Source: a phage. Taken from it: a stretch of 52,976 bases of DNA. The stretch lies in the sequence record PZ049337.1. One strand, 5' to 3'. Positions 1-23,552 of this stretch are shown piece by piece. Made by a program: the position numbers and the translations under genes. The notes beneath the pieces are model-generated. The model ran no database searches, was not told the origin of the DNA, and was given only the letters and a program-made list of their open reading frames with translations. Numbering within the stretch: position 1 is the stretch's first letter; each line of letters opens with the position of its first letter.

Positions 1-665
1 ATAAGCAATTGATGCAGGAAGAATTTAGGGCCATTACCTTTAACTTCTTTCTTCTTCGACTTGCCATTGTCCTTGATGATTAATTTGAGTTCACCATAAT
101 CTTTAGGGATTACGATTTTCTCACCAATACCCTGGGTTTCACGTTCCCATTGGTAATGTTTGATTACTGGACCAACACCACCGTTCTGCCCGATTTGTCG
201 CAAGTCTTTGTCCAGCGACGCAATCCAGACTTCATCATATGTGCAAGGACCAATACGCTTGAGGCTCTTAATCTCATTACGTTTACCCATTGTTGCTTCG
301 TATTCATGACGAGCGAATACAGCCAGAAGGTCATCTGCTTCCAGACCTTTCATCCACATTCCGTTCCATGCAACCATGAGATGTGCTTTCGCATTCTTAA
401 GGTTTTCTGGACGCCATACGGTATCACGGTTGCCCTTGTAGTCAGGAGCAAAGACATGTCTCATAGTTTCAGACGGGGATACAAAACTCATAATCTCCGT
501 GGCGCCAGAACGCTTGGCAAGGAACTCCATCTTTGAGTCTATGGACATTTGAATCTTGGCGAAGTTTATATCTCCTGGCTCTTTCCCATATTCTTCTGCC
601 GCGCAGTGGGAAAATGCAATCATATCTGCATCAACGAGAAGCAGGACGCGCTTCTTACTTACCAT
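1..665 (-). CDS. 5'-3' exonuclease / flap endonuclease (T7 gp6-like); C-terminus runs off the window start
   Basis: Minus-strand frame open from ATG at 665 to the window edge (absent from ORF track because truncated). Hand translation MVSKKRVLLLVDADMIAFSH...PDYKGNRD...EADDLLA shows FEN/PIN-type acidic motifs. Sits in the replication module. Confidence 0.55.
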   Translation of the reverse strand, partial: MVSKKRVLLLVDADMIAFSHCAAEEYGKEPGDINFAKIQMSIDSKMEFLAKRSGATEIMSFVSPSETMRHVFAPDYKGNRDTVWRPENLKNAKAHLMVAWNGMWMKGLEADDLLAVFARHEYEATMGKRNEIKSLKRIGPCTYDEVWIASLDKDLRQIGQNGGVGPVIKHYQWERETQGIGEKIVIPKDYGELKLIIKDNGKSKKKEVKGNGPKFFLHQLL

Positions 666-1083
666 TAAGTCCTTCTCCATTCTTGGTGTGCCACTGCTTG
701 TGGTGGAAGTTGCACAACCACCTTACATCCAGAGGCTTGGAATAGTCGTCGTGGTGAGCTACTGAATTAGTATCTCCACAACATTCGCAAGCACCTTTTA
801 CAAGTCTGTGCTCTCTAAGAGCTATTTGGACTGCAACATGTGCTGCACGTTTTATTGGGTTTGAGTTTCTGTACAAAGAAGTTTGCTCTCGAACTTTGTC
901 GATATTAGCTTTCTTATACTTACGGTTTGCTCGAAGTTTGGCCTCTGGGTTCTTGCTTATGCTGCTGTTGTTTTGTTTGTTTACACAAAACTTGCAGCTT
1001 GCTCGATGCCCATCTTTACCCAACTTCCATTTATAGAATTCAGATAAAGGCTTTGGTGTTTTACATGAACTACAAACTTTCAT
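655..1083 (-). CDS. HNH endonuclease with N-terminal zinc-finger (homing-endonuclease-like)
   Basis: CxxC...CxxC cysteines plus AHHDDYSKPLDVRWLCNFHHKQWH HNH core; paralog of ORF 4243..4632. Confidence 0.6.
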   Translation of the reverse strand: MKVCSSCKTPKPLSEFYKWKLGKDGHRASCKFCVNKQNNSSISKNPEAKLRANRKYKKANIDKVREQTSLYRNSNPIKRAAHVAVQIALREHRLVKGACECCGDTNSVAHHDDYSKPLDVRWLCNFHHKQWHTKNGEGLNGK

Positions 1084-1124: not shown

Positions 1125-1991
1125 TTAAAAGGGCATACCTGTGCCGCCAGCAGCACCACCTTCAGCTTCACGCTGTGCTTTCGCAGCAGCCTGTGCTTCC
1201 AGTTCAGCTTTCATAGCTGCATCAACTTCTTCATCAGAAGCCTGATTCGGTACAGCACCAGCATCGGCAGGTTTGCCACCTAACAGAGCAGACAGCTTGG
1301 TCTTGTAGAAATCAACACCGGAAGTAATACGGTTCTTGATTGCATACGGAGATTCGCCACCAGGCAGCTTGTTGAATACTTCCAGGTCTGGTTCAGACAT
1401 GTCGAAGAAGACAGTCGGGTTCACCAGAGCTTTGGCTTCTTTCTTCTCTTTGGACTTCATTGGAGAGAAGGTAGCAACCTTGTTCGCAACCTGACCAGCA
1501 TTCTTGCCGGACTGCTTGGTATATTGAACAATGCCAACAACCAGAGGTTCGGTCAACCAATCTGGTAGGTTCTTGGCAGGATGGCCCTGAATACCTTGTT
1601 CCAGGTTAGGTTTAACTTCCAGAGCATCAATCGCTTTAGCGAATTTGTAGATGTGGGAGTTGTCACCCATGAAGCCATCGGCATTGTAGGTAAACTCAAA
1701 GTCAAACCAACGTGGCTTGTCTTCAAGATTCTTCGCCATCATGATGCCGTCATCTTCGTCTGGGTCTTGAACCATGACCATTTTACCTTCACTGTCAACT
1801 TCTTTCATGTACTCGTCGAGCAGTTCGAAAGTCACCAGAAGTTTCAGGGACGGAGTAGGATATTTAGCAGAACCCGGCTGTAAGCCCAGGTCGATAATAC
1901 GGCAAACACGAGCAGGATAACCCCCCGCTTCCAGTAATGGTGCAGCAGAAGGAGTCTTGTTCGAGGCCAGGGTAGGAGCAGCAAATGCCAT
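1125..1991 (-). CDS. hypothetical protein, possible gp2.5-like ssDNA-binding/annealing protein
   Basis: 288 aa; ATG at 1991 with AGG Shine-Dalgarno; acidic/Ala-rich C-terminal tail ending GMPF; located between polymerase and exonuclease. Function is inferred from position and tail only. Confidence 0.4.
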   Translation of the reverse strand: MAFAAPTLASNKTPSAAPLLEAGGYPARVCRIIDLGLQPGSAKYPTPSLKLLVTFELLDEYMKEVDSEGKMVMVQDPDEDDGIMMAKNLEDKPRWFDFEFTYNADGFMGDNSHIYKFAKAIDALEVKPNLEQGIQGHPAKNLPDWLTEPLVVGIVQYTKQSGKNAGQVANKVATFSPMKSKEKKEAKALVNPTVFFDMSEPDLEVFNKLPGGESPYAIKNRITSGVDFYKTKLSALLGGKPADAGAVPNQASDEEVDAAMKAELEAQAAAKAQREAEGGAAGGTGMPF

Positions 1992-2022: not shown

Positions 2023-2295
2023 TTAATCAACTTGCAACATTGCAAGCTGGAAGTCATATCCAACTAATACTTCGGACAGCTCTTCAATTGAAGTCGTTGC
2101 CGAGATTAAAGTTTGGAGGTTTTTGAATGTCTCATCGTTAAATGCTTGAGACTGTGTGTCGGACGAATAGAATACTTTGTCCTTAATCTTTTCAAGGAAC
2201 GCCATTACGGCGTCTTTTGCGAGAACTTCGGAATCAGTAGCAAACATATGATGCTCTAACTCCTGCATATCGAAAATAGAATATACAATTTTCAT
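2023..2295 (-). CDS. hypothetical protein (90 aa)
   Basis: Minus-strand ORF packed between DNA polymerase and the 288-aa gene; no recognisable motif. Confidence 0.45.
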   Translation of the reverse strand: MKIVYSIFDMQELEHHMFATDSEVLAKDAVMAFLEKIKDKVFYSSDTQSQAFNDETFKNLQTLISATTSIEELSEVLVGYDFQLAMLQVD

Positions 2296-4250
2296 TAGTG
2301 AATCTCTGCGTAGTTATCACCGAACTGTACATCACATGCACAATCACGGTTAAGTTTAAGTTCTTTGTTGGTTCGGTCCATTGCCTCATTAAGTAAGTCT
2401 GTCCACAAATCACGGAAACCTTTCTTAACTTGGAGAATCAATTCATCATGGAATTGTCCAGACAGAAGCGGGTCACAGCCCCAACGTTCGTTACAAATTG
2501 CAATAATGTTATTACACCAAATATCAAACACATATGCGCCAGTACCCTGACACAATGTGGAGAAGCGGTCTTTCTCTGTACGCAATGAATACCAGAATTT
2601 GTTTACTGGATTCTGTTGCCACATCTGACCATCAACTGTGATAACTTTAGTGTTAGCAGCAATTTCTTTGATAGACCAGTTCAAGTCCCAATATGCTTTA
2701 TGCAGTCGTGCAGCAGTATTCTGGTCGCAACCAGCAGAACGGGCTACAGTTGGTACACCAGCACCATACTGACAAGCATAGTTTGTGGTCTTAAACATTG
2801 GACGTTGTTTACACTTCTTAATTCCGTCCTTATGGTCCTGAGATTCTTGTTCGGTGATAAATCCACCAATTACGCCGATTGCAAGGTGAGCATCATAGTC
2901 TGGTGCCAACTGCTTCTTAACGTATTCAGGGTCATACATCCACTGGAAGTGGTGCTTACAGCGGTCTTCCAGTGAACACAAGTCAGAGCCTAACTGCTCG
3001 TAGTCTTCGCGCCACGCTTCCAACATTGAACGAAGCTCTTCACCGCCAAATACGCGAATAGAAGGGAGGTTAACAAGTTCGCGGTGTTTAAGACGTAAAG
3101 TATTGGTAAGACCACCGCATCTTGCAGTAAGGAATCCATCTTCATCGACGTCGCGAAGGAAGCCATTAACAACAGACAGACGGTGTTTATACACGCCCAT
3201 ACCAATAAGGTGTTGAATACCGGAGTCGGGGTTTCTTTCTGCCAGCTTATGCAAGCTCGGACAGATTTCAGGATTTCCATCTTCATCCTTCACAGTGATT
3301 TGCGGAATCTGGCGAGTTTCACCTGTTTCCTTGTTACGGTCAAACTTAAAGGTTTCCGGTTCCCAACCTAGGCTGAACAACCAATCTTTGATTTGAACAT
3401 GTGAACCAGCATTAGGCTTCTTATAACCTTTAAGAACCTTGATAGCCAGGTCTGGGTCTTTCCAGTCCAAACCGTTTGCATCACAAATAGCCTTCCACTT
3501 AATTCCAGTGGCAGACAGTTGCCCGTTCATTTTGTGGCATTTAGTTGGACGGGTTTTGATAACATATTCCGGAACACGCGGCATTGATGCTTCCAATGCG
3601 TCCGTCTTCTCTTTAATCATTGGTTCCAGCTTGGCCTTAAACGCCAATGCCTTCTCAATGTTCAGCTTCCAGCGAGTACGTTGTTGAATAACTTGTTGAC
3701 GAGCTTTTGTCATCAGGTATTCAACGAAGCGTTTAACTTCGCTAGGAGATTTATAAATCTTCAAGAGTTGGATGTATTGCTGTTCCCACAGCTTCAACTG
3801 AATCTTGCAGTCTTCCATCACACGATGGTTGTACTCTTCTTGAGTTTGATTTTCCCAATCTTCAATGACTGGTTTTGGCACACCAAACTCTTCGCCGTAA
3901 CCTTCTAAGCCGTGCTTAACACGACGAGGTTGCAGATACCAACTGATAAACAAAGTATCAATTAGTGTACATTTTGAAACGTCGTAGCCCAGGAACCTCA
4001 GTGCCTCAAAGTCGAAGGTTGCGCCATTGTGAGTACAAAATGTTGGACCAGTATCTAGGAAGTCCTGAATAGCCTTTCTTTCAGTCCATTCAAACACCTT
4101 CTCTTCACGAGAAACAACATCAATGATTCCCATGTTGTGCAAGCGCGGTGCTTCTTGCTTCTTCATTTGGTCCAGTAAGCCAGTGGTTTCAATATCCATA
4201 GCATACATATTGGAGTAAGGATACAACATTTCAGGCTCCGAACTATTCAA
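2295..4250 (-). CDS. DNA polymerase, family A, with 3'-5' exonuclease domain
   Basis: Exo I motif DIETTGL near N-terminus; Pol A motif B RPMFKTTNYACQYG (R-x3-K-x7-YG); motif C FHDEL. Confidence 0.8.
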   Translation of the reverse strand: MNSSEPEMLYPYSNMYAMDIETTGLLDQMKKQEAPRLHNMGIIDVVSREEKVFEWTERKAIQDFLDTGPTFCTHNGATFDFEALRFLGYDVSKCTLIDTLFISWYLQPRRVKHGLEGYGEEFGVPKPVIEDWENQTQEEYNHRVMEDCKIQLKLWEQQYIQLLKIYKSPSEVKRFVEYLMTKARQQVIQQRTRWKLNIEKALAFKAKLEPMIKEKTDALEASMPRVPEYVIKTRPTKCHKMNGQLSATGIKWKAICDANGLDWKDPDLAIKVLKGYKKPNAGSHVQIKDWLFSLGWEPETFKFDRNKETGETRQIPQITVKDEDGNPEICPSLHKLAERNPDSGIQHLIGMGVYKHRLSVVNGFLRDVDEDGFLTARCGGLTNTLRLKHRELVNLPSIRVFGGEELRSMLEAWREDYEQLGSDLCSLEDRCKHHFQWMYDPEYVKKQLAPDYDAHLAIGVIGGFITEQESQDHKDGIKKCKQRPMFKTTNYACQYGAGVPTVARSAGCDQNTAARLHKAYWDLNWSIKEIAANTKVITVDGQMWQQNPVNKFWYSLRTEKDRFSTLCQGTGAYVFDIWCNNIIAICNERWGCDPLLSGQFHDELILQVKKGFRDLWTDLLNEAMDRTNKELKLNRDCACDVQFGDNYAEIH

Positions 4251-4632
4251 TAGGTGTATTATTCATATGCCACAGGGTGTGACATTCTTTGCAAAGCCAA
4301 CGAACAACCTTTGGCTTATTGTAGTCGTCGTGATGTGCCTCAAGTTTCTTATCTTGGCAACATCCCATACAACGTGCAGGAGGAATCATCCCACGTACCG
4401 CGACTCTGGCAGCACGCTTCTTAGGATTTAACTCTGCATGTTTCTTAGACCTTGCCTTATTGAGTTCCCGCTCTCGTCCGATATTACGAACAGGCTTCTC
4501 TGGTAATGGTGCAGATTTGTACTCTGCGCGATACTTCAATTTCTTGCAAAGCTTACACCAAGATGAACTCTTGTGAAAGTTTGCTTCATCTTGAGGTACT
4601 TTGCACTTAGAACAAATTTTCATCATTTCCAA
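4243..4632 (-). CDS. HNH endonuclease with N-terminal zinc-finger
   Basis: CSKCK...CKLCK zinc knuckles and EAHHDDYNKPKVVRWLCKECHTLWH; overlaps the DNA polymerase start by 8 nt; paralog of 655..1083. Confidence 0.6.
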   Translation of the reverse strand: MEMMKICSKCKVPQDEANFHKSSSWCKLCKKLKYRAEYKSAPLPEKPVRNIGRERELNKARSKKHAELNPKKRAARVAVRGMIPPARCMGCCQDKKLEAHHDDYNKPKVVRWLCKECHTLWHMNNTPIE

Positions 4633-4687: not shown

Positions 4688-6454
4688 TTATTGATGCGGA
4701 CCGTTCTTCTTAGTAAGTTGAACAATCTCTTTGGTTTCGAACAAGGAGTCGTCCCAAGAACGTTGAATGATTCGACCAGAGTCTGTGTCATAGTACGTCT
4801 TGAAGCCCTCTGTTTTACCACTCTTACGAGCTTTGATGGAACGAATAATAGAACAGTTTGGGTCTACTGCCTGACTATTACGCTCAAAACCAAACATACC
4901 ATGAGAATATTTAGCAGCAGCACGAGAGCCAGTAAAGTCTGACTTCTTAATACGTCCACCATCTTCATGAGGTCGCTGACCTTTTGCCACAGGGTTAAGG
5001 TGTGACAAGATATTAACATGGAACTGATATTGGTCTGCCAGCTTGGTAATGTCTGCATACAGCTTACCTAAGAAGTCGTTCTTCTCTGAGGCAGAAATCC
5101 CTTCTGATAAGTAGGTTAAGTTATCAAGAACAAACATATCAATGTCTGGACCAATCTGACGAAGAATCGTCTTTAACCCATCCCAAGTTTCATAAGGGTC
5201 TTCTCCAGCTTGCTTGCGGTCCCAAATCTCCATGTTACGAAGCATCTTCGCAGCAGTTTGACGGAACTTAGCTTCATCATATCGAGGGTCTTCACGAGTA
5301 AACGCGGGTTCCCAATATGGCAAGTTGTCGTTAAGGCCAGCCATTCGGCGTAATGTTTCCGCAGGAGTTTCCTCCATGTATGCAGTAAACACTCCCCAAT
5401 CATGCTGAACAATGTTGTGATGCACAATCTGTCGAGACAGTGTAGTCTTACCACCACCTTCTGCACCACCGATTGAGATAACTTCGGCACGACGTTGACC
5501 GAACATTAAGTCAGTCAGTTTGGGCCAAGGGTAGTCCACACCCTGTTCAACTTCGTCATCAAGCTCTTCCATAAGAAGTTCTTTGTTGACAAGTGCTGTA
5601 GGTAGAGGACGGGCAGCACGGAACACAACAGCAGATTGAGTAGCTTTAAGCAAGCCACGTTTCAAACAGTCGTTGGCATCGTTGGCAGGAAGTGTGGCAA
5701 TCATTGCACCAGGCAACAATCGACACGCTTCTTTTGCAGCTTTACGACCAGGTTCATCATCATCAAATACGATAACAACCTGCTCCCAACGTTGCTTAAT
5801 TTCTTCTGCAACTGGTGACAAACATTTGTGTACGGAATCACTTCCATCACTCAAACTAATTACAGCAAAATCCAAATCTTCATATGCACCACCACGGTTC
5901 ATAGTCTTGAGGATTTGACGCAATGCGATACAGTCTTCTTCACCTTCAGTGATGAACAATGTCTTACCGCCAATTGCTTTTGCAGCCAACCAATTGTAGG
6001 GTTCGTTGCCTTGAGTATCACCAACAGACCACATAACTTTCTTGTTCAGAAGTTTAATCTTCCAACGAACAAGTTTACCATTTTTGGTGTAGCCATGCGC
6101 CAAAGCATTTGGAGTCTTGCCATCAAACTCTGAATACAGAAGTCGGACACCAGCAGCTTTCCAAAATTCTGGTTCAATGCTGCGATGGTCTAAATCAAAC
6201 GGAGGACACGAGGTTACTTCGTCAATTTCTTCCTGAATTTCTTCTGGAGTCTTGACCTTAATTTCCGGAATATTCTCCGGATTATTGCCGTACGGATTCG
6301 GAACGAGAACGCCACATGCAAAGCAGTAACCAGAGAAGTTCTTATTACCAGCTTCATCGACATTCAACCAAACCTGTAAAGACTTGCCAGATGTGGATTT
6401 ACAGTCTGGTACATCGTGCTTAATCTTGGCAACACATTGCTTAACGTTCATCAT
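4688..6454 (-). CDS. bifunctional DNA primase/helicase (T7 gp4-like)
   Basis: N-terminal Cys4 zinc ribbon (CKSTSG...CFACG), central TOPRIM-like acidic region, Walker A GGAEGGGKTT of DnaB-type helicase. Confidence 0.8.
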   Translation of the reverse strand: MMNVKQCVAKIKHDVPDCKSTSGKSLQVWLNVDEAGNKNFSGYCFACGVLVPNPYGNNPENIPEIKVKTPEEIQEEIDEVTSCPPFDLDHRSIEPEFWKAAGVRLLYSEFDGKTPNALAHGYTKNGKLVRWKIKLLNKKVMWSVGDTQGNEPYNWLAAKAIGGKTLFITEGEEDCIALRQILKTMNRGGAYEDLDFAVISLSDGSDSVHKCLSPVAEEIKQRWEQVVIVFDDDEPGRKAAKEACRLLPGAMIATLPANDANDCLKRGLLKATQSAVVFRAARPLPTALVNKELLMEELDDEVEQGVDYPWPKLTDLMFGQRRAEVISIGGAEGGGKTTLSRQIVHHNIVQHDWGVFTAYMEETPAETLRRMAGLNDNLPYWEPAFTREDPRYDEAKFRQTAAKMLRNMEIWDRKQAGEDPYETWDGLKTILRQIGPDIDMFVLDNLTYLSEGISASEKNDFLGKLYADITKLADQYQFHVNILSHLNPVAKGQRPHEDGGRIKKSDFTGSRAAAKYSHGMFGFERNSQAVDPNCSIIRSIKARKSGKTEGFKTYYDTDSGRIIQRSWDDSLFETKEIVQLTKKNGPHQ

Positions 6455-8964: not shown

Positions 8965-8972
8965 GAATCACC

Positions 8973-9113
8973 TTAGATGGCGCACGCACCACTTGAACAG
9001 TCGTTATCGCCAGCACCAGGAACGATTGCTTCTTCGTCCTGCTTCTTCTTGAGTTCTTCAATTGCTTCTTCGGCAGCACCGAAGTCCAAATTGTCTAGTG
9101 CATCAATGTCCAT
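8973..9113 (-). CDS. small acidic protein (46 aa)
   Basis: Below the ORF-track cutoff; hand-translated MDIDALDNLDFGAAEEAIEELKKKQDEEAIVPGAGDNDCSSGACAI; GGAG Shine-Dalgarno 6 nt upstream of ATG at 9113. Confidence 0.3.
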   Translation of the reverse strand: MDIDALDNLDFGAAEEAIEELKKKQDEEAIVPGAGDNDCSSGACAI

Positions 9114-9140
9114 GAGGACTCCATGTTATTGTTGAAAGTG

Positions 9141-9235
9141 GGTGGACGAGGTTGGATTCGAACCAACGACACATCTGTCGAACAGATTGCTCTACCTGAC
9201 TAAGCTCTGGAGCAGACCTTCTGAGCTACTCGTCC
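9141..9235 (-). tRNA. tRNA-like gene with expanded D-arm; possible tRNA-Arg(UCG), isotype very uncertain
   Basis: Minus-strand read GGACGAG-TA-GCTCAG...GGTAGAGC...ATCTGTTCGACAGAT...GTTGG-TTCGAAT-CCAAC-CTCGTCC-A: perfect 7-bp acceptor stem, canonical T-arm, classic D-arm halves, but about 22 extra nt inside the D-loop; CCA not encoded. Confidence 0.4.
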
Positions 9236-10393
9236 AAAATTGGGTGGGTTTTGGTAACGCAGGTTTTCCCGAACTGCGAGGCTTGTAGAATCTGTGAGTC
9301 ATCTACTGTGTTTTGACATAACGTGGGATTGATGGTCCCGACTCACTTCATCTCAGGTACAAGGCACTACTTTGCGAGTGCAAGCAGGTGTTGAACCCAA
9401 GTACCAACAGGCAACCTGATTTAATCTACCTTTGTAGATACCATCGGTTATGAGCAGTTTATTTCCATGCTCAGGGCAACTCACTTTAGGGTGAATTAGG
9501 TTACGCAGTGCAGCTTCGAAGTCGCTGCCACAGGTTTGAGATTCCTGTGTGGAGGGAAATCCAGAGGAGCACTTCCCCAAGGAGTTACGTTTCAAATTGG
9601 CATAGCTTCTCACACTAAGCCAATTGAAGACATTCCAGTGTGCTCGTCCGTCCTCTAGAAATATCCAACTGCATAATTAAGTTTGTACTCTGTCACATCT
9701 CCACGCGCACTGGAAGACTTAAGCCTGCATTGCATCGCAGAATACAAATTAATTATTGCTCCGATTTATTAATCACATCTCGAAGCCACAATGCGCCAAA
9801 TTTGGTTACATGGGATTGGAAGACCACGGAGAGAACTTAAATTTAATTAAGCTGCAACTCGCATTTCAGAATCATTTGCATTTATTTTAAATGAATAAAA
9901 CAGTCGCAATAACTTCAGGCAGTTTAGACCCGTCGTAAGACTCAGAAAACTACTTCAATATGGACTCTGGCATTCAACCAGACTCGACTACTTTTCAAGG
10001 CACTACCCTCTACTTTTTCATCACCCGTACTGGATATACTTTCACTGGTGCCCTTCCGCAAAGATTTCTTAAAGCGTTTCCAGGATGTTTCGCGGTAGTG
10101 AATCGCTACTACTTCCAGGGTCTCCACCAATACTTTCTAGTGAGCACGTCCTTCCAGCTAATTGTCTTCTCTTATCGGAGAAGGGTTCGTCCATTGCACA
10201 TCCATATTGAAATAACTTCAATGAACACTCTTGTCTGGGCCATGAGCTTGGGCATCGGCCTACCTCCCAACTCTAATCACAAGAATGCTCATTGAAGCCC
10301 ACTCACTCTGGAATGGGTTCAAGGCAGCACCGGAAAACTTCCAGTGCATGCCAGATCGATTTAGCTTAGTCTCTCAAGTTTGCCATCGGCAAC

Positions 10394-10732
10394 TTAGAAT
10401 ACCGGAGCTTCTTCAACAGCAGCTTCGGCAGCTTCTTCAACAACTGCGTCAGCAACTTTAGCTTCTTTCGGGGTATCGAACTTAGTACGCTCAACTTCCG
10501 GCTCACCAGCTTCAACCCACGGCAGATAGAATGCCAGGAACTGCTCGACGGTGTTCTTCTGCATGGAGCGAGAACGGTCGATAGCGCCAACGGTGTTCAG
10601 GTACGCTTCGGCAGCTTTCTCAATTTTAGCACCGTTTTCCAGTTTGAAGTCATGTGCATTACACTCTGCTTCGGTCAGGAACAGGGAACCATCGTTAGCT
10701 TCGTACTGAGTTACGGTTACAATCTTAGCCAT
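10394..10732 (-). CDS. hypothetical acidic protein with C-terminal ...EEAPVF tail
   Basis: Track ORF 10394..10816; I prefer ATG at 10732 (MAKIVTV...) with AGG Shine-Dalgarno, because the recurring 17-nt motif lies in the upstream extension. Confidence 0.5.
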   Translation of the reverse strand: MAKIVTVTQYEANDGSLFLTEAECNAHDFKLENGAKIEKAAEAYLNTVGAIDRSRSMQKNTVEQFLAFYLPWVEAGEPEVERTKFDTPKEAKVADAVVEEAAEAAVEEAPVF

Positions 10733-10827: not shown

Positions 10828-10856
10828 GTCAGGACTGCTCTGATTTAACAAACAAC

Positions 10857-11531: not shown

Positions 11532-11532
11532 T

Positions 11533-11823
11533 TTAGTGGCCTTGTAGGATACGTTTGTTCGCAGTTTCTGCGTCGATTCCCAAATCAACTAATGTAACCA
11601 AGCACTGCGAAATCCGCTCTTGCGCAGCTTTCTCCAGAATTTGGTATTTTTCGTCGTTAACGCCTAACACATTCTTGGCATGAATGAGTGTAGCCATTAG
11701 GCCATGACCCAAAGCAACAGCTTGCATTGCCTGGAGTTCGAAGTTGATTGTGATGCCAGCAAGTTCGTGCTCTTTCTGGATAATCTCAATCAACTCTTCT
11801 TTGGATTTGTCTTGTAAGTTCAA
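11533..11823 (-). CDS. hypothetical protein (96 aa)
   Basis: Minus-strand ORF, 4-nt overlap with the upstream gene. Confidence 0.45.
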   Translation of the reverse strand: MNLQDKSKEELIEIIQKEHELAGITINFELQAMQAVALGHGLMATLIHAKNVLGVNDEKYQILEKAAQERISQCLVTLVDLGIDAETANKRILQGH

Positions 11824-12140
11824 AATGGGACTCCGTAAATTGGTTGGTTAGTTGTCCACTCGCGAGTTGCGATTTGCATGGACTTGTTTGGGCCGTGGTA
11901 GAAGTATTTCTTGACTTCCTCAAGTGTGTATTTAGCACTGCTTTCGAGAATATCTTTGAAAGTGTGCTTCCAGAACCCATCTTTCTCCGAAATTCCTACG
12001 GTAAAGTCGTTGGTGCCGTTGTACCACCAACGTCCACCAACCAGGACGAAGTGGATTGTTTCTTCCCCATCTTCCCCACTTAGAACAGACGTTAGTACAT
12101 TTCTTAATGTCAAAACTTTAGCAGAATGCTTGCGAATCAT
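11820..12140 (-). CDS. hypothetical protein (106 aa) ending ...GVPF
   Basis: ATG at 12140 with GGAGAG Shine-Dalgarno; C-terminal VPF tip. Confidence 0.5.
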   Translation of the reverse strand: MIRKHSAKVLTLRNVLTSVLSGEDGEETIHFVLVGGRWWYNGTNDFTVGISEKDGFWKHTFKDILESSAKYTLEEVKKYFYHGPNKSMQIATREWTTNQPIYGVPF

Positions 12141-12783: not shown

Positions 12784-12800
12784 TCAATTCCAACTAATGT
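12784..12800 (-). promoter_or_regulatory. copy of recurring 17-nt motif (minus strand ACATTAGTTGGAATTGA)
   Basis: In ORF-free region 12150-13010. Confidence 0.3.
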
Positions 12801-12864
12801 TTCAGAATTATTCCAATATTCCAAACAAAAAGAATAATAAGAATAAATTAAAATAAATGAAGAA

Positions 12865-12900
12865 AGTGCTTGACACCCATTTGGCGATAAGTGTATAATG
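12865..12900 (+). promoter_or_regulatory. sigma70-type promoter on the plus (antisense) strand
   Basis: TTGACA (12870-12875), 18-nt spacer ending TG, TATAAT (12894-12899): consensus -35, extended -10; points opposite to all genes. Confidence 0.4.
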
Positions 12901-12924
12901 CATTTCTTCCCTAAGAGGTCAGAA

Positions 12925-12941
12925 TCAAATCCCACTAATGC
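12925..12941 (-). promoter_or_regulatory. copy of recurring motif, degenerate (minus strand GCATTAGTGGGATTTGA)
   Basis: Adjacent to hairpin 12949-12995. Confidence 0.25.
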
Positions 12942-13011
12942 TTCAGACGAAGTGCCGAAGGCCAATGCGAGTACAAAACCCGCTTGGCACTTCGAAGAAA
13001 CCCGCCTGGAA

Positions 13012-13248
13012 CTATAGTGCTTTCCAATCTGAATCAAACAGTTTCTTTGGTCTTGAATAAATTATCGAATTAATTCCCAAGAAAGTATGATTTCCATACT
13101 TCTTAACTTCCTGGTAAGCAAAACCATCTACCCAATCTCCGGAGTGGGTTTTAATCTTTGTAGCAAACAGGATTCGATAGTAGTGGCCGCGTGGCTGGTG
13201 GAAGAGTATATCTTCTGGCTTGATTGAGCTAATATTTAAATCACGCAT
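13012..13248 (-). CDS. hypothetical protein (78 aa)
   Basis: Minus-strand ORF, tightly packed early-gene block. Confidence 0.4.
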   Translation of the reverse strand: MRDLNISSIKPEDILFHQPRGHYYRILFATKIKTHSGDWVDGFAYQEVKKYGNHTFLGINSIIYSRPKKLFDSDWKAL

Positions 13249-13789
13249 TTAAGAACAATACTCCTTCGGAGAAGATGTAGTCGCTTCCATAATCTTTTGC
13301 AACTGCATCCCAATCAATGTATGGACGAAGATGGTCTGGAACTTCTATCCCATCATAGTTTTTGAAGTAGTCTGCAATTGAGTCGCAACGAGTGATGAAC
13401 ATGTCATTCAAATCATTCACAGTGAAAATATCAATCTCACCACTACGGAATGCAGCAAGAATTACAAACAAATCAGTGTCATTTAAAAGTTCATTGAATT
13501 TGTCATACTTGCGTAGGCTGAACAGGCCATCAACAAAGCAAACTTCCGTAACATCCTCATCTCTTGATTCGAGAATGTCGTAAGTCCCTGTTTCTGGGTA
13601 CTCGATACCATATTCTTCGTGTAAATATTCTGACATGTTGAAGTCATAGAGCCGCCACGCCAGACCATCAATCCAAGCATCTTCATGCTCGGAATTGTTT
13701 TCGCCTGTGTAGAAACGAACCAATAAGGTTTCATCTCTACGCCAGGACTTAAGCTGTGATACTGCTTGAGTAATGTTATCGTTTTGCAT
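13241..13789 (-). CDS. ArdA-like antirestriction protein (DNA mimic)
   Basis: 182 aa, strongly acidic; C-terminal PYIDWDAVAKDYGSDYIFSEGVLF resembles my recollection of the ArdA C-terminal motif (YIDYQAYGRDL...GIFEI). Confidence 0.45.
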   Translation of the reverse strand: MQNDNITQAVSQLKSWRRDETLLVRFYTGENNSEHEDAWIDGLAWRLYDFNMSEYLHEEYGIEYPETGTYDILESRDEDVTEVCFVDGLFSLRKYDKFNELLNDTDLFVILAAFRSGEIDIFTVNDLNDMFITRCDSIADYFKNYDGIEVPDHLRPYIDWDAVAKDYGSDYIFSEGVLFLNA

Positions 13790-14074: not shown

Positions 14075-14470
14075 TTATGCTGGAAGTTCGAAGTGTGGTG
14101 CGTCTAGGAATTTAGCCCATTTCACCGGCTTAGTGAATGAACGCTCCCATGTTCCGCCCCAACGAATGACAATTCCAAGCTCTTCTGCGGCTTTGAACAT
14201 GTGTTCAGCTACAATTTGGAATCGTTCGAGGTCATTCCAGTCAATTGGATATGGTGCAATGTCCAAAGCGTTGCCTGACATGTGTCGGCTAACTGAAACT
14301 TTGGTTGCACCCTGTTTTAACAGCTCTTGTTGACGTTCATAAGAGCGTAAACCTTCCAAAACAGTTACATCAAAAGGCATGGTTTCACATGCCCGTTTGA
14401 AAACTGCAACTAATGAAGGATTTACTCCCTTAAGTCGGTCTAAAGAACGCTGACCGAGCTTAACATTCAT
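14075..14470 (-). CDS. peptidoglycan L-alanyl-D-glutamate peptidase, M15 family (T5-type endolysin)
   Basis: 131 aa; SRHMSGNALDIAPY...IDWNDLERF...ELGIVIRWGGTW...DAPHFE gives the H-x6-D...H zinc-binding pattern; no signal peptide. Confidence 0.7.
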   Translation of the reverse strand: MNVKLGQRSLDRLKGVNPSLVAVFKRACETMPFDVTVLEGLRSYERQQELLKQGATKVSVSRHMSGNALDIAPYPIDWNDLERFQIVAEHMFKAAEELGIVIRWGGTWERSFTKPVKWAKFLDAPHFELPA

Positions 14471-14975: not shown

Positions 14976-15331
14976 TTCTTCTCCGTACAGCTGGTGGATA
15001 AAACAGGATAGTTTGCTTTGAGGAAATCTCCATCACGGAAAATCTGAAGTACAAGTTTGTCTTCATGATTTATAAACAGTGCAGCAAACCTGCTATCTTT
15101 AATGTTGTAAAACAAAACTGTTGCAGGATTTGGTTCATCGCTTGGAACCTCCATCCAAACACCAGCTTCAGGAATTATTGACGCAATCAGAGGTTGGCTG
15201 TCTCCAATATTATCAATTACAAGAGCATACGCTCCGCATTTGAAGTTCTTTGTTGACGCTTTGGACTCAAAGCTGAAGAACGCCAAAACAATTAATGCTA
15301 AAGTATAAATGATGATGTACTTAAGTTTCAT
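14972..15331 (-). CDS. secreted/periplasmic hypothetical protein
   Basis: N-terminal signal-peptide-like MKLKYIIIYTLALIVLAFFSFESKAS. Confidence 0.45.
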   Translation of the reverse strand: MKLKYIIIYTLALIVLAFFSFESKASTKNFKCGAYALVIDNIGDSQPLIASIIPEAGVWMEVPSDEPNPATVLFYNIKDSRFAALFINHEDKLVLQIFRDGDFLKANYPVLSTSCTEKK

Positions 15332-15383
15332 AATTCCTCCAATAATTAATCGAGGCCACTCGAAGTGGAATGGCCTCTGTTAA

Positions 15384-16088
15384 TTACAGCTTCTTGATAA
15401 GCTCTGCGGATTTGCTTGCAGCAACTTTCATTTCATCGCGTGCGGCTTTGGTGATTGATGCCTTATCCACGCGAATGTTACAGTTGCCGATTGCAATCTT
15501 GCCATCTTCTGTTGGTGCAAGTTGCTGTAAGTCGAGCATTTGCTCCAGCTTTTGCAGAAGAATACGTTGTGCTTCGATTGCATTTTGAATATTTAAAGTT
15601 TCCATTACTGCTCTTACCTTTCTTGAATAAGTTTCAAATAATGATAGGCGCACTTGCAAACCTTTTACGCCATCACAGTCAAAATTGACTTTGTTGAATG
15701 GTGAATTTGGATGCTTATATACATTTGTAACAGTTTTCCAATTACCCTTATGCAAGATAACATCACCAACTTCCACATCAGCGCCTTTAACATCCTCTTC
15801 ATCTGAGAATGGTTTCACTGCTTCACCATAAGGGAGAAACACTGGTGTTATCTGTGTGCTGAATGTCGCTGTTGGAGTCCCCAAAGCTGGTGGCCTGTCG
15901 AGCACTTTGACTATGCGGCCAAATTCAAAATTGTAGTACCCACCAGAATATTGCAACTGAACTGCATCACTAAACCGGAGGATGTTTTCAATCCGGTATT
16001 CCCTGTTGCCGTAAACCAATACATCACCAGGCTTTACCAAATTGGCAGGTATTTCGACAAATTTAGTTCCCATTATGGTATTCCTCAC
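15384..16088 (-). CDS. hypothetical protein (about 230 aa)
   Basis: Largest early-region ORF; no motif recognised. Confidence 0.45.
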   Translation of the reverse strand: MRNTIMGTKFVEIPANLVKPGDVLVYGNREYRIENILRFSDAVQLQYSGGYYNFEFGRIVKVLDRPPALGTPTATFSTQITPVFLPYGEAVKPFSDEEDVKGADVEVGDVILHKGNWKTVTNVYKHPNSPFNKVNFDCDGVKGLQVRLSLFETYSRKVRAVMETLNIQNAIEAQRILLQKLEQMLDLQQLAPTEDGKIAIGNCNIRVDKASITKAARDEMKVAASKSAELIKKL

Positions 16089-16197
16089 GCATTGCTGAAC
16101 AGTGCTTACACACCCAAAAGGTTACATAATCGTTTTCATGTGAAATTTCCCAATTATGTAGCCCTATAAAACATAAAATTTTCATAGGGCATCCCAA

Positions 16198-16551
16198 TTA
16201 GAATGGAATATCGTCGTCGAAGTCTTTCGGCTCGTTCGGATTGTAATTGCTCTGCTGTTGCTGAGCAGAAGGTTGCTGACGTTGCTGTCGCTGTTGAGCA
16301 GCGGCTTGAGGTTGAGCTTTGGCTTTAGCTTTCTCTTCACGCTTACGCATCATTTCATCAACCTGTTCTTGGGTCATGATGGTCAATGCAAGTGAGGTAA
16401 ATTCATTACCATTTGCTTGCTTGTTCCAGCCAGATACCCAATACCAGATTCCGTCAACGTTAATACGTCCACGAACGTCGGGATGTTTTGGGTCTTTCTT
16501 GAAGCCATTGGAACCGATGATGCCAGTGTTTACGTCTGAATATTGTGCCAT
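16198..16551 (-). CDS. small protein carrying a host-SSB-like C-terminal tip (DFDDDIPF)
   Basis: 117 aa; ATG at 16551 with Shine-Dalgarno; Gln/Ala-rich linker then NEPKDFDDDIPF, matching the E. coli SSB tip as I recall it; N-terminal domain about 70 aa, too short for a canonical OB fold. Confidence 0.55.
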   Translation of the reverse strand: MAQYSDVNTGIIGSNGFKKDPKHPDVRGRINVDGIWYWVSGWNKQANGNEFTSLALTIMTQEQVDEMMRKREEKAKAKAQPQAAAQQRQQRQQPSAQQQQSNYNPNEPKDFDDDIPF

Positions 16552-16623
16552 GATTAAGATTCTCTTAAGTTAATTACAGTTTAAGTTTCAGTGACATTGC
16601 TAACCACGGAATAGCTTTGTCTC

Positions 16624-16640
16624 TCACATCCAACTAATGT
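16624..16640 (-). promoter_or_regulatory. copy of recurring 17-nt motif (minus strand ACATTAGTTGGATGTGA)
   Basis: 73 nt upstream of ATG 16551; identical 17-mer at 20704-20720. Confidence 0.4.
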
Positions 16641-16680
16641 TGAATTAATCAGGAACACTCAATGAATGCTCCTTGTTAAT

Positions 16681-16968
16681 TTACATCGACTTGGAAATAG
16701 GAATCGGGTCAATGTTTGATTCAGGTTTATACCAGCTTACTTCACCAGAATCTTTCACAAGCTCCCACAAATTGGAGAATGTACGATAGAGTAGAACTTT
16801 GTTATCATCAATAACGACAAAACCCAAAGGAGATTGAATATACGCACCCAATGTACCACTGTTTCGAGGAACTCCGTCACCACGACCTGCGACGATTTTG
16901 TACTTCTTGCCTTTGGTGAAGCTGGAATTAGTTTCACCAACATATTTAACGATTGAATTCTTGTTCAT
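16681..16968 (-). CDS. hypothetical protein (95 aa)
   Basis: Minus-strand ORF. Confidence 0.4.
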   Translation of the reverse strand: MNKNSIVKYVGETNSSFTKGKKYKIVAGRGDGVPRNSGTLGAYIQSPLGFVVIDDNKVLLYRTFSNLWELVKDSGEVSWYKPESNIDPIPISKSM

Positions 16969-17198
16969 TGCTTTAGTTTCTCCAAAGCGGATAATACGGA
17001 ATCACCAGAACCACTAATTACAAGCGTTTCCCCTGGAAGATTGTAGGATATATAAGAGAACGTCCATTTTACAACAGTTCTCTGATATGAGGAGCTGTAT
17101 TTATCAGACAGCTCTATATCTTGCCTTGCATCGTTTAGTAAGAACTCCTGCCCATCAATAGTCAGTTGCTTAAACATTTCGATATGACTCTTACCCAC
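16965..17198 (-). CDS. hypothetical protein (77 aa)
   Basis: Minus-strand ORF. Confidence 0.4.
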   Translation of the reverse strand: MGKSHIEMFKQLTIDGQEFLLNDARQDIELSDKYSSSYQRTVVKWTFSYISYNLPGETLVISGSGDSVLSALEKLKQ

Positions 17199-17481
17199 GC
17201 TTCACCTTCTCCCATTTAGATAAACCACCCTCAAGACTGAATACGCGGTTACAACCAGATTCATCTTTAATGACGAATTGAGTTCCGGTTAACTGAACTG
17301 GCTCAAGTGCACCAAACAACACTTTAGGTTTTGACAAGCTGGTGGCAAGAACTTTGTATGCTTTGCTTGGGCAAATGTCAAAAGCAAAGTCACGAGTGTA
17401 AACTAAGTCACCAACCTTCAAATATGCTGGTAACAAGCGACCTGTGGCTGGGTCACGTTGTAAACGAGTACGTTGTTTCAT
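17191..17481 (-). CDS. hypothetical protein (96 aa)
   Basis: Minus-strand ORF. Confidence 0.4.
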   Translation of the reverse strand: MKQRTRLQRDPATGRLLPAYLKVGDLVYTRDFAFDICPSKAYKVLATSLSKPKVLFGALEPVQLTGTQFVIKDESGCNRVFSLEGGLSKWEKVKRG

Positions 17482-17544
17482 AAATGCTCCAAGTTAATTA
17501 ATAATATTCAGCAACCACTCTCATTATGAGAATGGTTGAGGAAA

Positions 17545-17796
17545 TTATTTAACTTCTTCCCAGGACCAGACACTGCCTTTTAGCGGAACGCTTTCACCAG
17601 CATTCCAGTAAGGTTTTCCATCAACATCCTTGTGGTCACTATCTTTCAAAAGGTTTATGCGAGCTTCCACACCGTATTCTCGCTGAACATGTACAAGTTC
17701 TCCCTCAAGCACGACACCAACCTGCGGAGAATACTCCCCAGAAGATGTTGATTTTACACATTTAAACTTTGTCATTGTAATACACCTTGTTCGCAA
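17545..17796 (-). CDS. hypothetical protein (83 aa), tandem paralog of 17772..17999
   Basis: Shares N-terminal M(T)KFKCV.S...VG...EGE.V pattern with the neighbour. Confidence 0.4.
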   Translation of the reverse strand: MRTRCITMTKFKCVKSTSSGEYSPQVGVVLEGELVHVQREYGVEARINLLKDSDHKDVDGKPYWNAGESVPLKGSVWSWEEVK

Positions 17797-17999
17797 ATAT
17801 CTGCAAACTCTGCACGATGGTCACGCTGCCATGTCCAGAATGCACCATTCATAGGAACAACAGCGCCTTTACGAAATGCTGGAGAAATACTCTCAGCAGA
17901 TTTGGTAACTTTAAATTCTAAAGGTGAAACAGCTTCACCCTCGATGATTAGGCCAACTGGGACGTAGTCTTTGTTGGAAGCAACACATTTAAATTTCAT
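17772..17999 (-). CDS. hypothetical protein (75 aa), tandem paralog of 17545..17796
   Basis: MKFKCVASNKDYVPVGLIIEGEAV... Confidence 0.4.
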   Translation of the reverse strand: MKFKCVASNKDYVPVGLIIEGEAVSPLEFKVTKSAESISPAFRKGAVVPMNGAFWTWQRDHRAEFADICEQGVLQ

Positions 18000-18001
18000 G
18001 G

Positions 18002-20794: not shown

Positions 20795-21031
20795 TCAGAA
20801 CGGTATCTCTGTATCAAAGTATCCAGAATTGTGTAAGAATGCGTGCAATAATACATGCGACTCTTGTTTATATTCTGCTAACAACTCTAAGAAGTCTTTA
20901 GTCTCATTCACTGTGGGACGAGATAAGTTGCTCATGTCACAGGTGTGGTGAGGATTGAAACAGTTTTCGATTTGATTGATTTGTTGAGTATTCATTGTAG
21001 TCTCCAATTTGTTATAGTCATCCTTGACCAA
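20795..21031 (-). CDS. hypothetical protein (78 aa) ending ...FDTEIPF
   Basis: Immediately downstream of the RNA polymerase gene; SSB-tip-like C-terminus. Confidence 0.45.
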   Translation of the reverse strand: MVKDDYNKLETTMNTQQINQIENCFNPHHTCDMSNLSRPTVNETKDFLELLAEYKQESHVLLHAFLHNSGYFDTEIPF

Positions 21032-21041
21032 TTAATCCTAA

Positions 21042-22982
21042 TTATTGACAGAAGTAGTAAGCGTGTTCGCTCATCAGAAGCTCTTCAGTTACGATATTCT
21101 CATGATACATCTGAATGCCACCGAGTTGCTTAGACAGATTCTCGAATTGATTGTTGGTTACGAAGATTTCAACATATGCTGCACGAATAACTTCCATCAT
21201 ACGTGGAGCATCAGCTAAGCAGCAACGGAAACAGTCATGGATTGAAGTGAAACCACGAAGACCAGCTTCTTTAGCCTTAACTGCAACAGTACGAGCAACC
21301 AACGCGTCAATACCTTGAATGTAGTTAACAACGAAGGTACGCTTGAACTCTTCTTTAGTTGGGTTGGACTCACGAATGGTCCAAGGCTTATTCTCCTGAA
21401 TCTGACCAAAGATAACACGAGTTTGAGAGTCAACACGAATGCTGAATGCCTCACAGATTTCACGAGATGGGAAGCAAGGCTTCATTACAACCTGACCATC
21501 AGTGTGCTTATAGGTGATGTACTCTTTGTTGAGTTCAACACAACGAGCAAATGCAGCATCAGCAGCTTTCTCAATGAACATGTTAATCTTAGCACCCAAT
21601 GCGTTATGGATTGCTTCTACACACAGTTCAGCAAATGCCTCAGCTTTCTCCATAGGAATCTGAAGAGATGCAGTCATGTAGGAGATAAAGTCAGAAGAAC
21701 CAGTTAATGCTGCTTTACCACCACCATATTGGATAGCCATGTATGGAGTTTTGATAAACTTACGACCAGCTTTCGGATTCAAGAATTCATCCATAATTTC
21801 AGGAGATGGTTTCATTGAAGAACGGTCTAATAACTTTAACAGTTCACGAAGAGATAACTGGTATGGGTCAGATGCTTTAGTCTCAGAATCAACCAGACCT
21901 GTTGCACGAGCCATCTCCATGTTACCAGCAATGAATGCCAGATATTGAGTACCAGAACATTTAGCATCTAAGCCAAAGCCTACACGAGAATCACACTCAC
22001 CTGTAGTCTCAAACTTGAACCAATCCAGAGCCAGACGAACATAAGTGAATGGCTTAGAAGGACGTTCAGCTTTAGGCATGTTCATCATGCGAGCAAGTGA
22101 ACCAGCTGGATTCTGAGCAACATAGGTCAAACGTTTAGCACTGCACCATTCACCACCAGAAATATCTTCCAGCTCAGCCATGAACATGTTGTATGCAATG
22201 GTAGTAGAACCATCTTCGTTAAACTTCTTAACGATGTTCTCAACATTGTGAGAATACAGGCAACGAGCAAAGTCAGATGATTGTGGGTTAGGACCAGCAC
22301 ATGCTACATGATACAGGCGACCACGGTTATCAGCAAAGTAGTCAGAATAGAGTGTATCCTGAGTCATCATTGCTACAGCATTGTTCCAAACATGGAGTTC
22401 AGTCTGGATTGCTTCTGGCATCTGCAAACCACCGTAGGTACGTTGTTCAATCATGGACTGAATGATGCGAACCATTTCAGTCTCCACATGGTACTCAGTA
22501 TCTTGCAGGAATTCGATTGCAGCTTTCAGAGTCTTGGATGGCTTAACTTTGCCACCTTTAACGAAAGGCTTGCGACGAGATTCAGATGTAACACGCTCAG
22601 TGAATGGCACTGCTGTGTCTTTGGTTGTAACCAGCTCAACCCATGTATCAGTTTGTTGGAATGACTTGTCTTCGTTCATGGTGATGAAGCCAAAGTGTTT
22701 AGCTAAACCAATGAGGTTGATAGCTGGGTCAACATAGTGCATTGATTTCAAGTCGTTGTTATAGCGGTTGGCATCAGCAATAGAAGAAGAAGCCAGTTCA
22801 ACCATTGCAATGGCTGGGACAACATCATCACGAGTGAATGACGTCATCATCTTGAAGATTGCAAGAGCAGCAATAGCACAGGTCTGAGGCTGCATATAGT
22901 TCTGTTTCTCTTTGGCACGATATACCAGAGCCGTGATAGCAGGGACAACGGATTTGATAGTTTGAGTGGTGATAGTAGTCAT
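21042..22982 (-). CDS. single-subunit DNA-directed RNA polymerase (T7-like), N-terminally short (646 aa)
   Basis: DNRGRLYHV...NPQ matches T7 DWRGRVYAV...NPQ; CSGTQY versus T7 CSGIQH; motif B RKFIKTPYMAIQYG (R-x3-K-x3-M-x3-YG); motif C IHDCF; GGAG Shine-Dalgarno before ATG 22982. T7 comparisons are from memory. Confidence 0.8.
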   Translation of the reverse strand: MTTITTQTIKSVVPAITALVYRAKEKQNYMQPQTCAIAALAIFKMMTSFTRDDVVPAIAMVELASSSIADANRYNNDLKSMHYVDPAINLIGLAKHFGFITMNEDKSFQQTDTWVELVTTKDTAVPFTERVTSESRRKPFVKGGKVKPSKTLKAAIEFLQDTEYHVETEMVRIIQSMIEQRTYGGLQMPEAIQTELHVWNNAVAMMTQDTLYSDYFADNRGRLYHVACAGPNPQSSDFARCLYSHNVENIVKKFNEDGSTTIAYNMFMAELEDISGGEWCSAKRLTYVAQNPAGSLARMMNMPKAERPSKPFTYVRLALDWFKFETTGECDSRVGFGLDAKCSGTQYLAFIAGNMEMARATGLVDSETKASDPYQLSLRELLKLLDRSSMKPSPEIMDEFLNPKAGRKFIKTPYMAIQYGGGKAALTGSSDFISYMTASLQIPMEKAEAFAELCVEAIHNALGAKINMFIEKAADAAFARCVELNKEYITYKHTDGQVVMKPCFPSREICEAFSIRVDSQTRVIFGQIQENKPWTIRESNPTKEEFKRTFVVNYIQGIDALVARTVAVKAKEAGLRGFTSIHDCFRCCLADAPRMMEVIRAAYVEIFVTNNQFENLSKQLGGIQMYHENIVTEELLMSEHAYYFCQ

Positions 22983-23049
22983 TTGTAAGTCTCCAAGATT
23001 GTGTATGATTTAACTGAAACGGATTATAATAGCGTAGCCATTACACAAT

Positions 23050-23066
23050 TCACTTCCAACTAATAT
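23050..23066 (-). promoter_or_regulatory. copy of recurring 17-nt motif (minus strand ATATTAGTTGGAAGTGA)
   Basis: 68 nt upstream of the RNA polymerase ATG; a TATAAT-like hexamer lies about 25 nt downstream of it. Confidence 0.35.
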
Positions 23067-23170
23067 CACAAACCTGTGCCATTGTTAGCACAGCACGGAG
23101 ACTTTGACCTTGACTCATAAGCGAAGCGCCTAACTTGGTGTTATCATTAAGCCGATAGGCTGTAGAAAAA

Positions 23171-23229
23171 GTTGGGGTAGGGACCGTATTTTAAGTCCGA
23201 TAGGACGTTGGGCTTCCCCTCCCCGCGAC
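23171..23229 (-). terminator. possible intrinsic terminator after the late/nrdB transcription unit
   Basis: Minus strand GGGGAGGGG...CCCTACCCC stem (one mismatch, one G-U) followed by AACTTTTTC; loop is long, so uncertain. Confidence 0.3.
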
Positions 23230-23242
23230 CTCAAAAATAAAA

Positions 23243-23470
23243 ATTAATATTGCCACAATTCGAGTCTCATTAATATTGAAACAATTTGAGTCTCATTAAT
23301 TTTGTAGCAATATTAAAATAAAAAAAAATTATAAAAAAAAAATTATTTCATAGTCAGACAACTGTTCGAAAAAATTTCGGCGAGATACAGCTGACCGACC
23401 ATGTACCATTTGGTTTTGAACTTTACGCATTCCTAATATTACTCTTAATATTGTAGCAATATTGGGAATA
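23243..23470. repeat. AT-rich repeat region (24-nt direct repeat, A-tracts, TGTAGCAATATT boxes)
   Basis: CACAATTCGAGTCTCATTAATATT (23254-23277) and AACAATTTGAGTCTCATTAATTTT (23280-23303); poly-A runs 23318-23345; TGTAGCAATATT at 23298 and 23452, related to the 20040-20312 array. Confidence 0.5.
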
Positions 23471-23552
23471 AATAAATATTTAATTTACTTGTTTTATTCT
23501 AGCTCAAAGAGAAACGACGCTAACGCATCGAATCTCTTCTCACATATAATCG

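Follow-up and report, generated by a model that had tools for sequence, protein, structure and literature searches.

In Escherichia coli the tip of SSB, the protein which binds single-stranded DNA, docks exonuclease I (ExoI), RecQ, PriA, RecO, RecG, chi, DnaG and other proteins, and the locus examined here raises the question of what a small phage protein does with an exact copy of that tip on a body in which no SSB domain can be recognized. The protein has 117 amino acids (aa) and is encoded by an open reading frame (ORF) at 16198..16551 of a 52,976-nucleotide stretch of phage DNA (record PZ049337.1), which at its full length is called the window below. An earlier note, made from the letters alone, had drawn attention to the tip, had seen no oligonucleotide/oligosaccharide-binding (OB) fold in front of it, had considered the body too small to be an SSB and had listed four other early or replication proteins with a similar end. 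The five ORFs and their endings are real, and all lie on the minus strand. We find that the tip and the lack of a recognizable OB fold hold up and that the argument from size does not, and we believe with moderate confidence that the protein is a minimal non-OB protein that binds single-stranded DNA (ssDNA) and couples the ssDNA of the phage to the partners that bind the SSB tip.

The identity of the tip is clear. E. coli SSB (chain 1eqq) ends SNEPPMDFDDDIPF and the 117-aa protein ends NEPKDFDDDIPF, so that the two share their final 8 residues, DFDDDIPF, and, if a gap of one residue is allowed, agree at 11 of the last 12. Among 25 relatives with 42 to 97% identity, F111, D112, I115, P116 and F117 are invariant, and the family consensus ends EPPMDFDDDIPF, identical to the final 12 residues of E. 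coli SSB. An end of the form DFD[DS]DIPF was present in 6 of 6 genera of the Chaseviridae, the family to which the phage belongs. A recent capture of the tail from a host ssb gene was rejected, since blastn in its "distant" mode found no nucleotide similarity between the gene and any of 5,426 E. coli genomes. The tip is also presented as in bacterial SSB (1eqq; Pfam SSB, TIGR00621) and in phage SSBs with the canonical DDDIPF end, where a disordered linker rich in Q, G and P precedes the acidic tip. The linker of the 117-aa protein resembles the intrinsically disordered linker of bacterial SSB and aligns to that of E. coli SSB in a profile search, and its predicted disorder begins at residue 80, from which point the predicted local distance difference test score (pLDDT) is below 60.

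The body is where the likeness to bacterial SSB ends, as the 117-aa protein is without a recognizable OB-fold DNA-binding or tetramerization domain. No OB fold was found in the ~75-aa body by any sequence or structure test applied. Pfam gave no match for the protein, and when phmmer and the family profile were run against all PDB sequences, E. coli SSB was matched only over its last ~40 residues (linker and tip; 1eqq residues 138-178). The SSB models of NCBIfam scored below their curated cutoffs (TIGR00621 with 21.5 bits versus 53.95, PRK09010 with 21.2 versus 260) and matched only residues 42/70-117, which means that hidden Markov models of SSB see the tail and not an OB fold. AlphaFold2 (AF2), run on the 25-sequence alignment, predicts four strands and a helix with pLDDT >90 for residues 11-70 and a disordered tail, and G28, W36, W38 and W42 are invariant in the beta core. 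A Foldseek search of the PDB with this model returned nothing significant, MoSub1 being second with E=0.28. In the predicted structure of this protein no OB fold was recognizable, while an OB-like order of strands was predicted for another of the five, a 288-aa protein that is discussed below. That the 117-aa protein is an ordinary compact SSB, with a diverged and shortened OB fold that the tools missed, seems very improbable to us in view of these results. In its favor, OB folds are notoriously hard to detect by sequence (PMC4889955), the database name of the protein is SSB, and RPA32 and PriB do occur in the Foldseek list, albeit far down (E>0.6, probability 0.08-0.23).

The name requires some care. 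The product is 79 to 92% identical to the annotated "single-stranded DNA-binding protein" of phiEcoM-GJ1-like phages, and the homolog is annotated as SSB in all Chaseviridae relatives; in phage phiEcoM-GJ1 (GJ1) the original annotation cites similarity to two other phage proteins. Two PHROGs families that both bear the name "single strand DNA binding protein" match the protein, phrog_7364 over residues 1-91 (E=7.6e-42) and phrog_18154 over residues 3-117 (E=5.8e-20); the name is an annotation only. Because the curated SSB models see only the tail, the SSB names of the family appear to be based on the tail.

The closest fold matches to the body, although none was significant, were small ssDNA binders of the PC4/Pur-alpha/Whirly type, including the PC4 homolog of phage T5 (4bg7), a proposed replicative SSB of T5-like phages, and this superfold is the nearest fold type that we find. 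In BFVD, a fold search turned up a protein with the name "SSB" and otherwise only small, uncharacterized proteins of phages. In hhalign, the profile of the N-terminal domain (N-domain) matched human PC4, the sequence of which was verified against 1pcf, with a probability of 62% and a score of 25.8, compared with 9.9 +/- 2.2 (maximum, 18.8) for 100 shuffles and a background score of 9.6 for the OB domain of E. coli SSB; the alignment places Y37/W38 of the family on Y88/W89 of PC4. The signal is fragile, falling to a probability of 17% against a 3-sequence PC4 profile and to background for MoSub1 and the homolog from the T5-like phage PG07, with the register unchanged, and the Pfam PC4 model (PF02229) had no match among 89 family members. 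The order of strands and helix in the model agrees with that of the PC4-like superfold. However, the helix at residues 61-79 is not a constant of the family, because in many short members, some with a total of 70 to 85 aa, strand 4 runs straight into the linker. In the Chaseviridae lineage the modeled N-domain looks like a unit of the PC4/Pur-alpha/Whirly type, which is a likeness and not an established membership of the superfold.

The N-domain belongs to a very large family. A profile search of 1.84 billion representatives found 2,232 proteins (clusters) at E<=1e-3, of which 164 were at E<=1e-10. The members have 70 to 170 aa, and the best 147 representatives have a median length of 112 aa and the N-domain consensus YDNTNrGaLFxNDRKxxDxHPDYxGxxNVxGVxYWxSgWxKxxxxGxxFxSLS. 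Of these 147, the end is PF in 110, acidic-x-[I/V/L]-P-F in 81 and DDDIPF in 47; the search profile contained the tail and therefore favors tailed members, yet the tip was also found in many matches that scored only through residues 2-58. Two tandem N-domains of ~60 aa followed by a single linker and tip are found in 10 of the 147 (~7%; e.g., P0088, P0095, P0105, P0127, P0141, P0173 and P0176), and phrog_7364, which is 158 positions long, appears to represent such tandem members. The occurrence of members with one and with two N-domains recalls PC4-like domains, which also come as single and as double repeats. The family is without a Pfam model: DUF736 (PF05284) matched 13 of 89 members weakly (best E=2.7e-4, below the gathering level) and did not match the 117-aa protein. 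Our literature search returned no paper that characterizes a family member and nothing specific on DUF736, the SSB of phiEcoM-GJ1 or mimics of the SSB C terminus (SSB-Ct). One member, on a contig of a Chitinophagaceae metagenome-assembled genome (a Bacteroidota bin, L028:4001-4237), ends ADDLPF and not DDIPF. That the tip may track the SSB tip of the respective host is only suggestive, coming from this one member among 14 loci, most of which are on contigs of Pseudomonadota metagenome-assembled genomes.

Some members of the family occupy the SSB slot in unrelated phages. In phage C75C1, a 72-aa member with the end KEEAPF directly follows an Erf-like annealing protein and is near a DnaB-like helicase, and in Acinetobacter phage SH-Ab 15497 (L010:3492-3791) a 99-aa member with the end DLDDDLPF directly follows DNA polymerase I and has an adenylosuccinate-synthetase-like gene on its other side; the two flanking genes are reminiscent of the DpoZ/PurZ pair of aminoadenine (Z-genome) phages. 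Further family records overlap annotations of "Sak-like" annealing proteins. In the 53-kb window, tblastn detected no E. coli-type SSB and no homolog of T7 gp2.5, and the only similarity to E. coli SSB was that of the last ten residues of the 117-aa protein. The view that this body is too small to be an SSB is hard to maintain for a conserved, aromatic-rich beta domain that defines a family of 2,232 clusters labeled SSB, takes the SSB position in unrelated phages and has small ssDNA binders as its closest folds.

How such a protein might work can be outlined from these features, with the ssDNA binding, the oligomerization and the docking partners being what we infer. The beta domain of ~60 aa, rich in conserved Trp and Tyr, would stand in for the OB fold and, with the helix that follows it in the Chaseviridae lineage, would form a unit of four beta strands and then an alpha helix, like those of PC4, Pur-alpha and Whirly. 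The N-domain probably acts as a dimer or higher oligomer, tethered by the disordered Q/P/A-rich linker to the bacterial-type tip. While bound to the ssDNA of the phage, it would expose the very peptide by which host SSB docks its partners, and proteins that read the SSB-Ct, such as host ExoI, RecQ, PriA, RecO, RNase HI and the chi subunit of Pol III or annealing and replisome proteins of the phage, could be recruited to phage DNA, which would put host SSB in competition for these proteins. Phage annealing proteins reportedly depend on the SSB-Ct.

What makes the role of the 117-aa protein most uncertain, and also weighs against a function as the SSB of this phage, is that the window encodes another candidate. 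AF2 predicts for the 288-aa protein (pLDDT 87.5) the elements b1(23-38), b2(48-65), b3(88-102), alpha(113-120), b4(149-158) and b5(168-176), which is the order of an OB fold; beyond these come small helices and then a long one (253-276), and the tail is disordered (pLDDT <50). This order, with its helix between b3 and b4, and the disordered tail would fit a gp2.5-like SSB. In the related genomes examined, its homolog is always found just downstream of the polymerase gene and before the 5'-3' exonuclease gene. In six genera the protein ends GMPF, NIPF, NIPF, DMPF, VIPF and GQPF, and in distant homologs (30 to 40% identity) from phages of Vibrio, Pseudomonas, Aeromonas and others the tail is strongly acidic and ends in F, Y or W, often as Pro-aromatic. 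An acidic tail with an aromatic end is a hallmark of SSBs of the T7 gp2.5 and DUF669/N4 types (PMC4889955). The DUF669/N4 group also shares with the 288-aa protein the status of an uncharacterized phage replication protein with a suspected, highly diverged OB fold in a genome with no other known SSB (Kazlauskas et al. 2016, PMC4889955), but DUF669 did not match the window protein and matched only 1 of 45 members of its family weakly (E=0.0046). A search of PDB sequences with the protein and its profile gave no match to any chain, and its PHROG, phrog_862, is of unknown function. Homology to T7 gp2.5 (hhalign probability, 0.3%), to the SSB of N4 (gp45) or to the phage protein Bas52_0087 was rejected, as all three hhalign comparisons were at background. 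On the basis of the predicted model and the tails, it is plausible that the 288-aa protein is a second, gp2.5-style SSB, or even the main one.

If the 288-aa protein were the true replicative SSB, the 117-aa protein could be a decoy or hijacker. It would then mainly carry the host tip, early and in abundance, and titrate or redirect ExoI, RecQ, PriA and others away from host SSB, and its N-domain would serve only for oligomerization or act on another target. The exact and invariant copy of all 8 host residues would fit such a function, as would the OB-like strand order and gp2.5-style terminal aromatic residue of the larger candidate, and very small early proteins with ends like the SSB tip occur here too (FDTEIPF in the window and DEFDIPF in a 55-aa protein of E. 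coli phage 4HA13). We nevertheless consider this unlikely. A pure decoy needs neither a conserved aromatic beta domain, which is found in >2,000 clusters, nor an SSB-like linker, and the family fills the SSB slot beside annealing proteins, helicases and polymerases in phages whose examined stretch carries no further SSB annotation.

A parallel to such competition is Bas52_0087 of the Vequintavirus RudolfGeigy, which was confirmed to belong to phrog_4477, a family that matches the 117-aa protein at residues 61-117. Like the 117-aa protein, it joins a non-canonical SSB-like phage body to the host-type tip FDDDIPF, but it has 408 aa and two predicted OB folds, and only its tail is similar. Bas52_0087 is required to trigger the DRT10 defense system, and the dosage of ExoI modulates the triggering, according to a preprint. 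The work on Bas52_0087 proposes tip-mediated competition with ExoI, which favors the decoy.

The tip of the 117-aa protein is not the only conserved end of its kind in this genome. Among 79 non-overlapping minus-strand ORFs, 4 end in PF, while 0.115 would be expected from the PF dipeptide frequency of the proteome (binomial P = 6.3e-6), and 8 end in F, while 3.2 would be expected (P = 0.014). All four PF-ending ORFs lie in the early/replication half of the genome. Chance as the cause of the PF ends was rejected by the binomial test together with the conservation between genera, where the endings persist even though the remaining tail does not. The four other proteins singled out in the earlier note therefore have endings that are neither random nor confined to one genus. 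In the 112-aa protein, an acidic tail followed by a hydrophobic residue and F was found in 6 of 6 genera, ending PVF, PLF, PMF, SVF, AIF or AVF. The 106-aa protein, which has no Pfam or PHROG family, retains GVPF in 3 of 4 detectable homologs, namely, those of GJ1, Aeromonas phage phiA050 (36% identity) and 4HA13 (29% identity). The fourth protein probably starts at the ATG at 20995, judging from its homologs, which likewise have 66 aa. These homologs (P0330-P0333) fall into two alleles in which the last ~18 residues are unrelated (...HAFLHNSGYFDTEIPF versus ...SQTFQERWEEEHNGCPF) and which end in FDTEIPF and HNGCPF, with PF retained in both. In 4HA13, a 55-aa acidic early protein (gp01, L006:194-361) encoded upstream of the RNA polymerase gene has the SSB-tip-like end APTDEFDIPF; no homolog was found in the corresponding gap of the window (22983..23552).

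The four further conserved Phe tails suggest that several early proteins have a "terminal Phe" docking mode in common, and under any of the readings considered here, the simplest view of these proteins is that they all use pockets of one kind. In phage T7, gp2.5 and gp4 have acidic C-terminal tails with a terminal Phe and dock on the T7 DNA polymerase. All five Phe tails of the window could similarly dock on the T7-like DNA polymerase or primase-helicase of the phage, with the likeness to the host tip being incidental or ancestral. A family-A polymerase and a gp4-like primase-helicase are indeed encoded, gp2.5 of T7 ends ...EADEDGDF, and replication-module proteins with disordered, often acidic tails and an aromatic end are common to both phages (F, Y or W in the 288-aa family and F in the 112-aa family). 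However, most of the tails in the window end in Pro-Phe, like the bacterial tip, and the T7 arrangement is not reproduced, because the primase-helicase ends ...KKNGPHQ and lacks a terminal Phe. Moreover, the mini-SSB family keeps D-D-D-I-P-F alongside differing replication modules (DnaB-like helicase and Pol I), which indicates a receptor on the host side or a generic SSB-Ct receptor, and the 12-residue consensus equals the host sequence. Internal docking of this type seems quite unlikely to us.

A broader proposal is that of a "terminal Pro-Phe code", in which at least 5 early or replication proteins of the Chaseviridae (the mini-SSB, the gp2.5-style candidate and three small ones of unknown function) would plug into host pockets for the SSB C terminus and together seize or shut down the host SSB interactome, and in which the mini-SSB would represent an unrecognized but widespread non-OB class of SSBs (>2,000 clusters) that evolved or captured the bacterial tail. 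We regard this as unlikely. The more general suggestion of the earlier note, that such proteins redirect or block the host SSB interactome or are assembled onto the phage replisome, is plausible.

The features discussed are listed in Table 1. The window comprises the whole or nearly the whole genome of a myophage of the phiEcoM-GJ1-like group (Chaseviridae, Carltongylesvirus-like); its positions 15000-18000 have 86 to 91% identity to phages of this group from E. coli, Shigella and Yersinia, and the minus strand carries every credible gene. Along this strand the early/replication half leads from a single-subunit RNA polymerase (21042..22982) down to the primase-helicase (4688..6454), after which come the DNA polymerase (2295..4250) and then the 288-aa protein, an order that matches that of GJ1, Erwinia phage Y2, Pectobacterium phage PM1, Proteus phage Myduc and 4HA13. 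The putative promoter element is identical to positions 7044-7063 of GJ1, which are annotated there as "putative phage promoter 3".

Table 1. Positions in the window of the 117-aa protein gene, its parts and the other features discussed
Feature	Position	Strand	Basis or remark
Gene of the mini-SSB-like protein of 117 aa (complete ORF with its stop codon)	16198..16551	minus	ORF list; phrog_7364 match
Four-stranded beta core, residues 9-58	16378..16527	minus	AF2 and conservation; E9-14, E26-32, E35-46, E49-58
Alpha helix after the beta core (H61-79), residues 61-79 (MTQxEVDxMM...)	16315..16371	minus	AF2
Q/A/P-rich disordered linker, residues 80-105	16237..16314	minus	pLDDT 45-58; length and sequence vary among relatives
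SSB C-terminal tip, residues 106-117, NEPKDFDDDIPF	16201..16236	minus	Identity to the end of E. coli SSB
Putative promoter element, 20 nt, tcaacattagttggatgtga	16624..16643	minus	~75 nt upstream of the start codon of the 117-aa protein
288-aa protein, candidate second (gp2.5-style) SSB or annealing protein, ends GTGMPF	1125..1991	minus	Directly downstream of the DNA polymerase gene
112-aa protein, unknown function, acidic tail ending EEAPVF	10394..10732	minus	phrog_17419 E=2e-64
106-aa protein, unknown function, ends YGVPF	11820..12140	minus	ORF list
66-aa early protein, ends FDTEIPF	20795..20995 (ORF 20795..21031)	minus	phrog_20790; just downstream of the RNA polymerase gene

Several other features of the early region were noted in passing. 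Two paralogous small HNH-type endonuclease ORFs on the minus strand (655..1083 and 4243..4632), with the motif ...AHHDDY.KP..VRWLC...H..WH in common, bracket the block of the DNA polymerase and 288-aa genes; in related phages the HNH genes have varied positions within the same module, and in 4HA13 the polymerase gene is interrupted by one of them and appears in the annotation as a join of two pieces. A stretch of ~1.3 kb (9100..10390) without a convincing minus-strand ORF corresponds roughly to a region for which tRNAs are annotated in PM1 and Myduc and, in GJ1, a tRNA-Arg "that may contain an intron". ARAGORN found no tRNA in positions 7000-13000 of the window, including a counterpart of the tRNA-Arg of GJ1. 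By synteny with GJ1, Y2 and 4HA13, the minus-strand ORFs 13241..13789 and 14075..14470 appear to encode an "anti-restriction protein" and an endolysin, and both sit inside the early gene block, away from the structural and lysis genes.

Phage SSBs with host-like tips, a PC4-like phage SSB and the SSB label on this gene are already known. What is new is that the body of an SSB-labeled, putatively DNA-binding protein appears to be non-OB, with a label that appears to rest on the tail; that the family of these tiny proteins is very large, missing from Pfam and unstudied; and that at least 5 early or replication proteins retain a terminal Phe in this phage lineage. If the ~60-aa beta core does bind ssDNA, phage genome annotation would be affected, since "SSB" calls of this kind are based on the tail and not on a DNA-binding domain. 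Recombineering and the engineering of SSB compatibility would be affected as well, since annealing proteins read the SSB C terminus, and so would research on defenses such as DRT10 and Retron-Eco8, which respond to phage SSBs or to the activity of ExoI. The conserved terminal Phe of the four additional early proteins provides a directly testable hypothesis for how a lytic phage competes over the host SSB hub. With ssDNA binding by its beta core, the family, with whole proteins of 70 to 120 aa, would be among the smallest SSB architectures known, and it would represent a widespread non-orthologous replacement of the OB fold in which the docking peptide of bacterial SSB has been retained.
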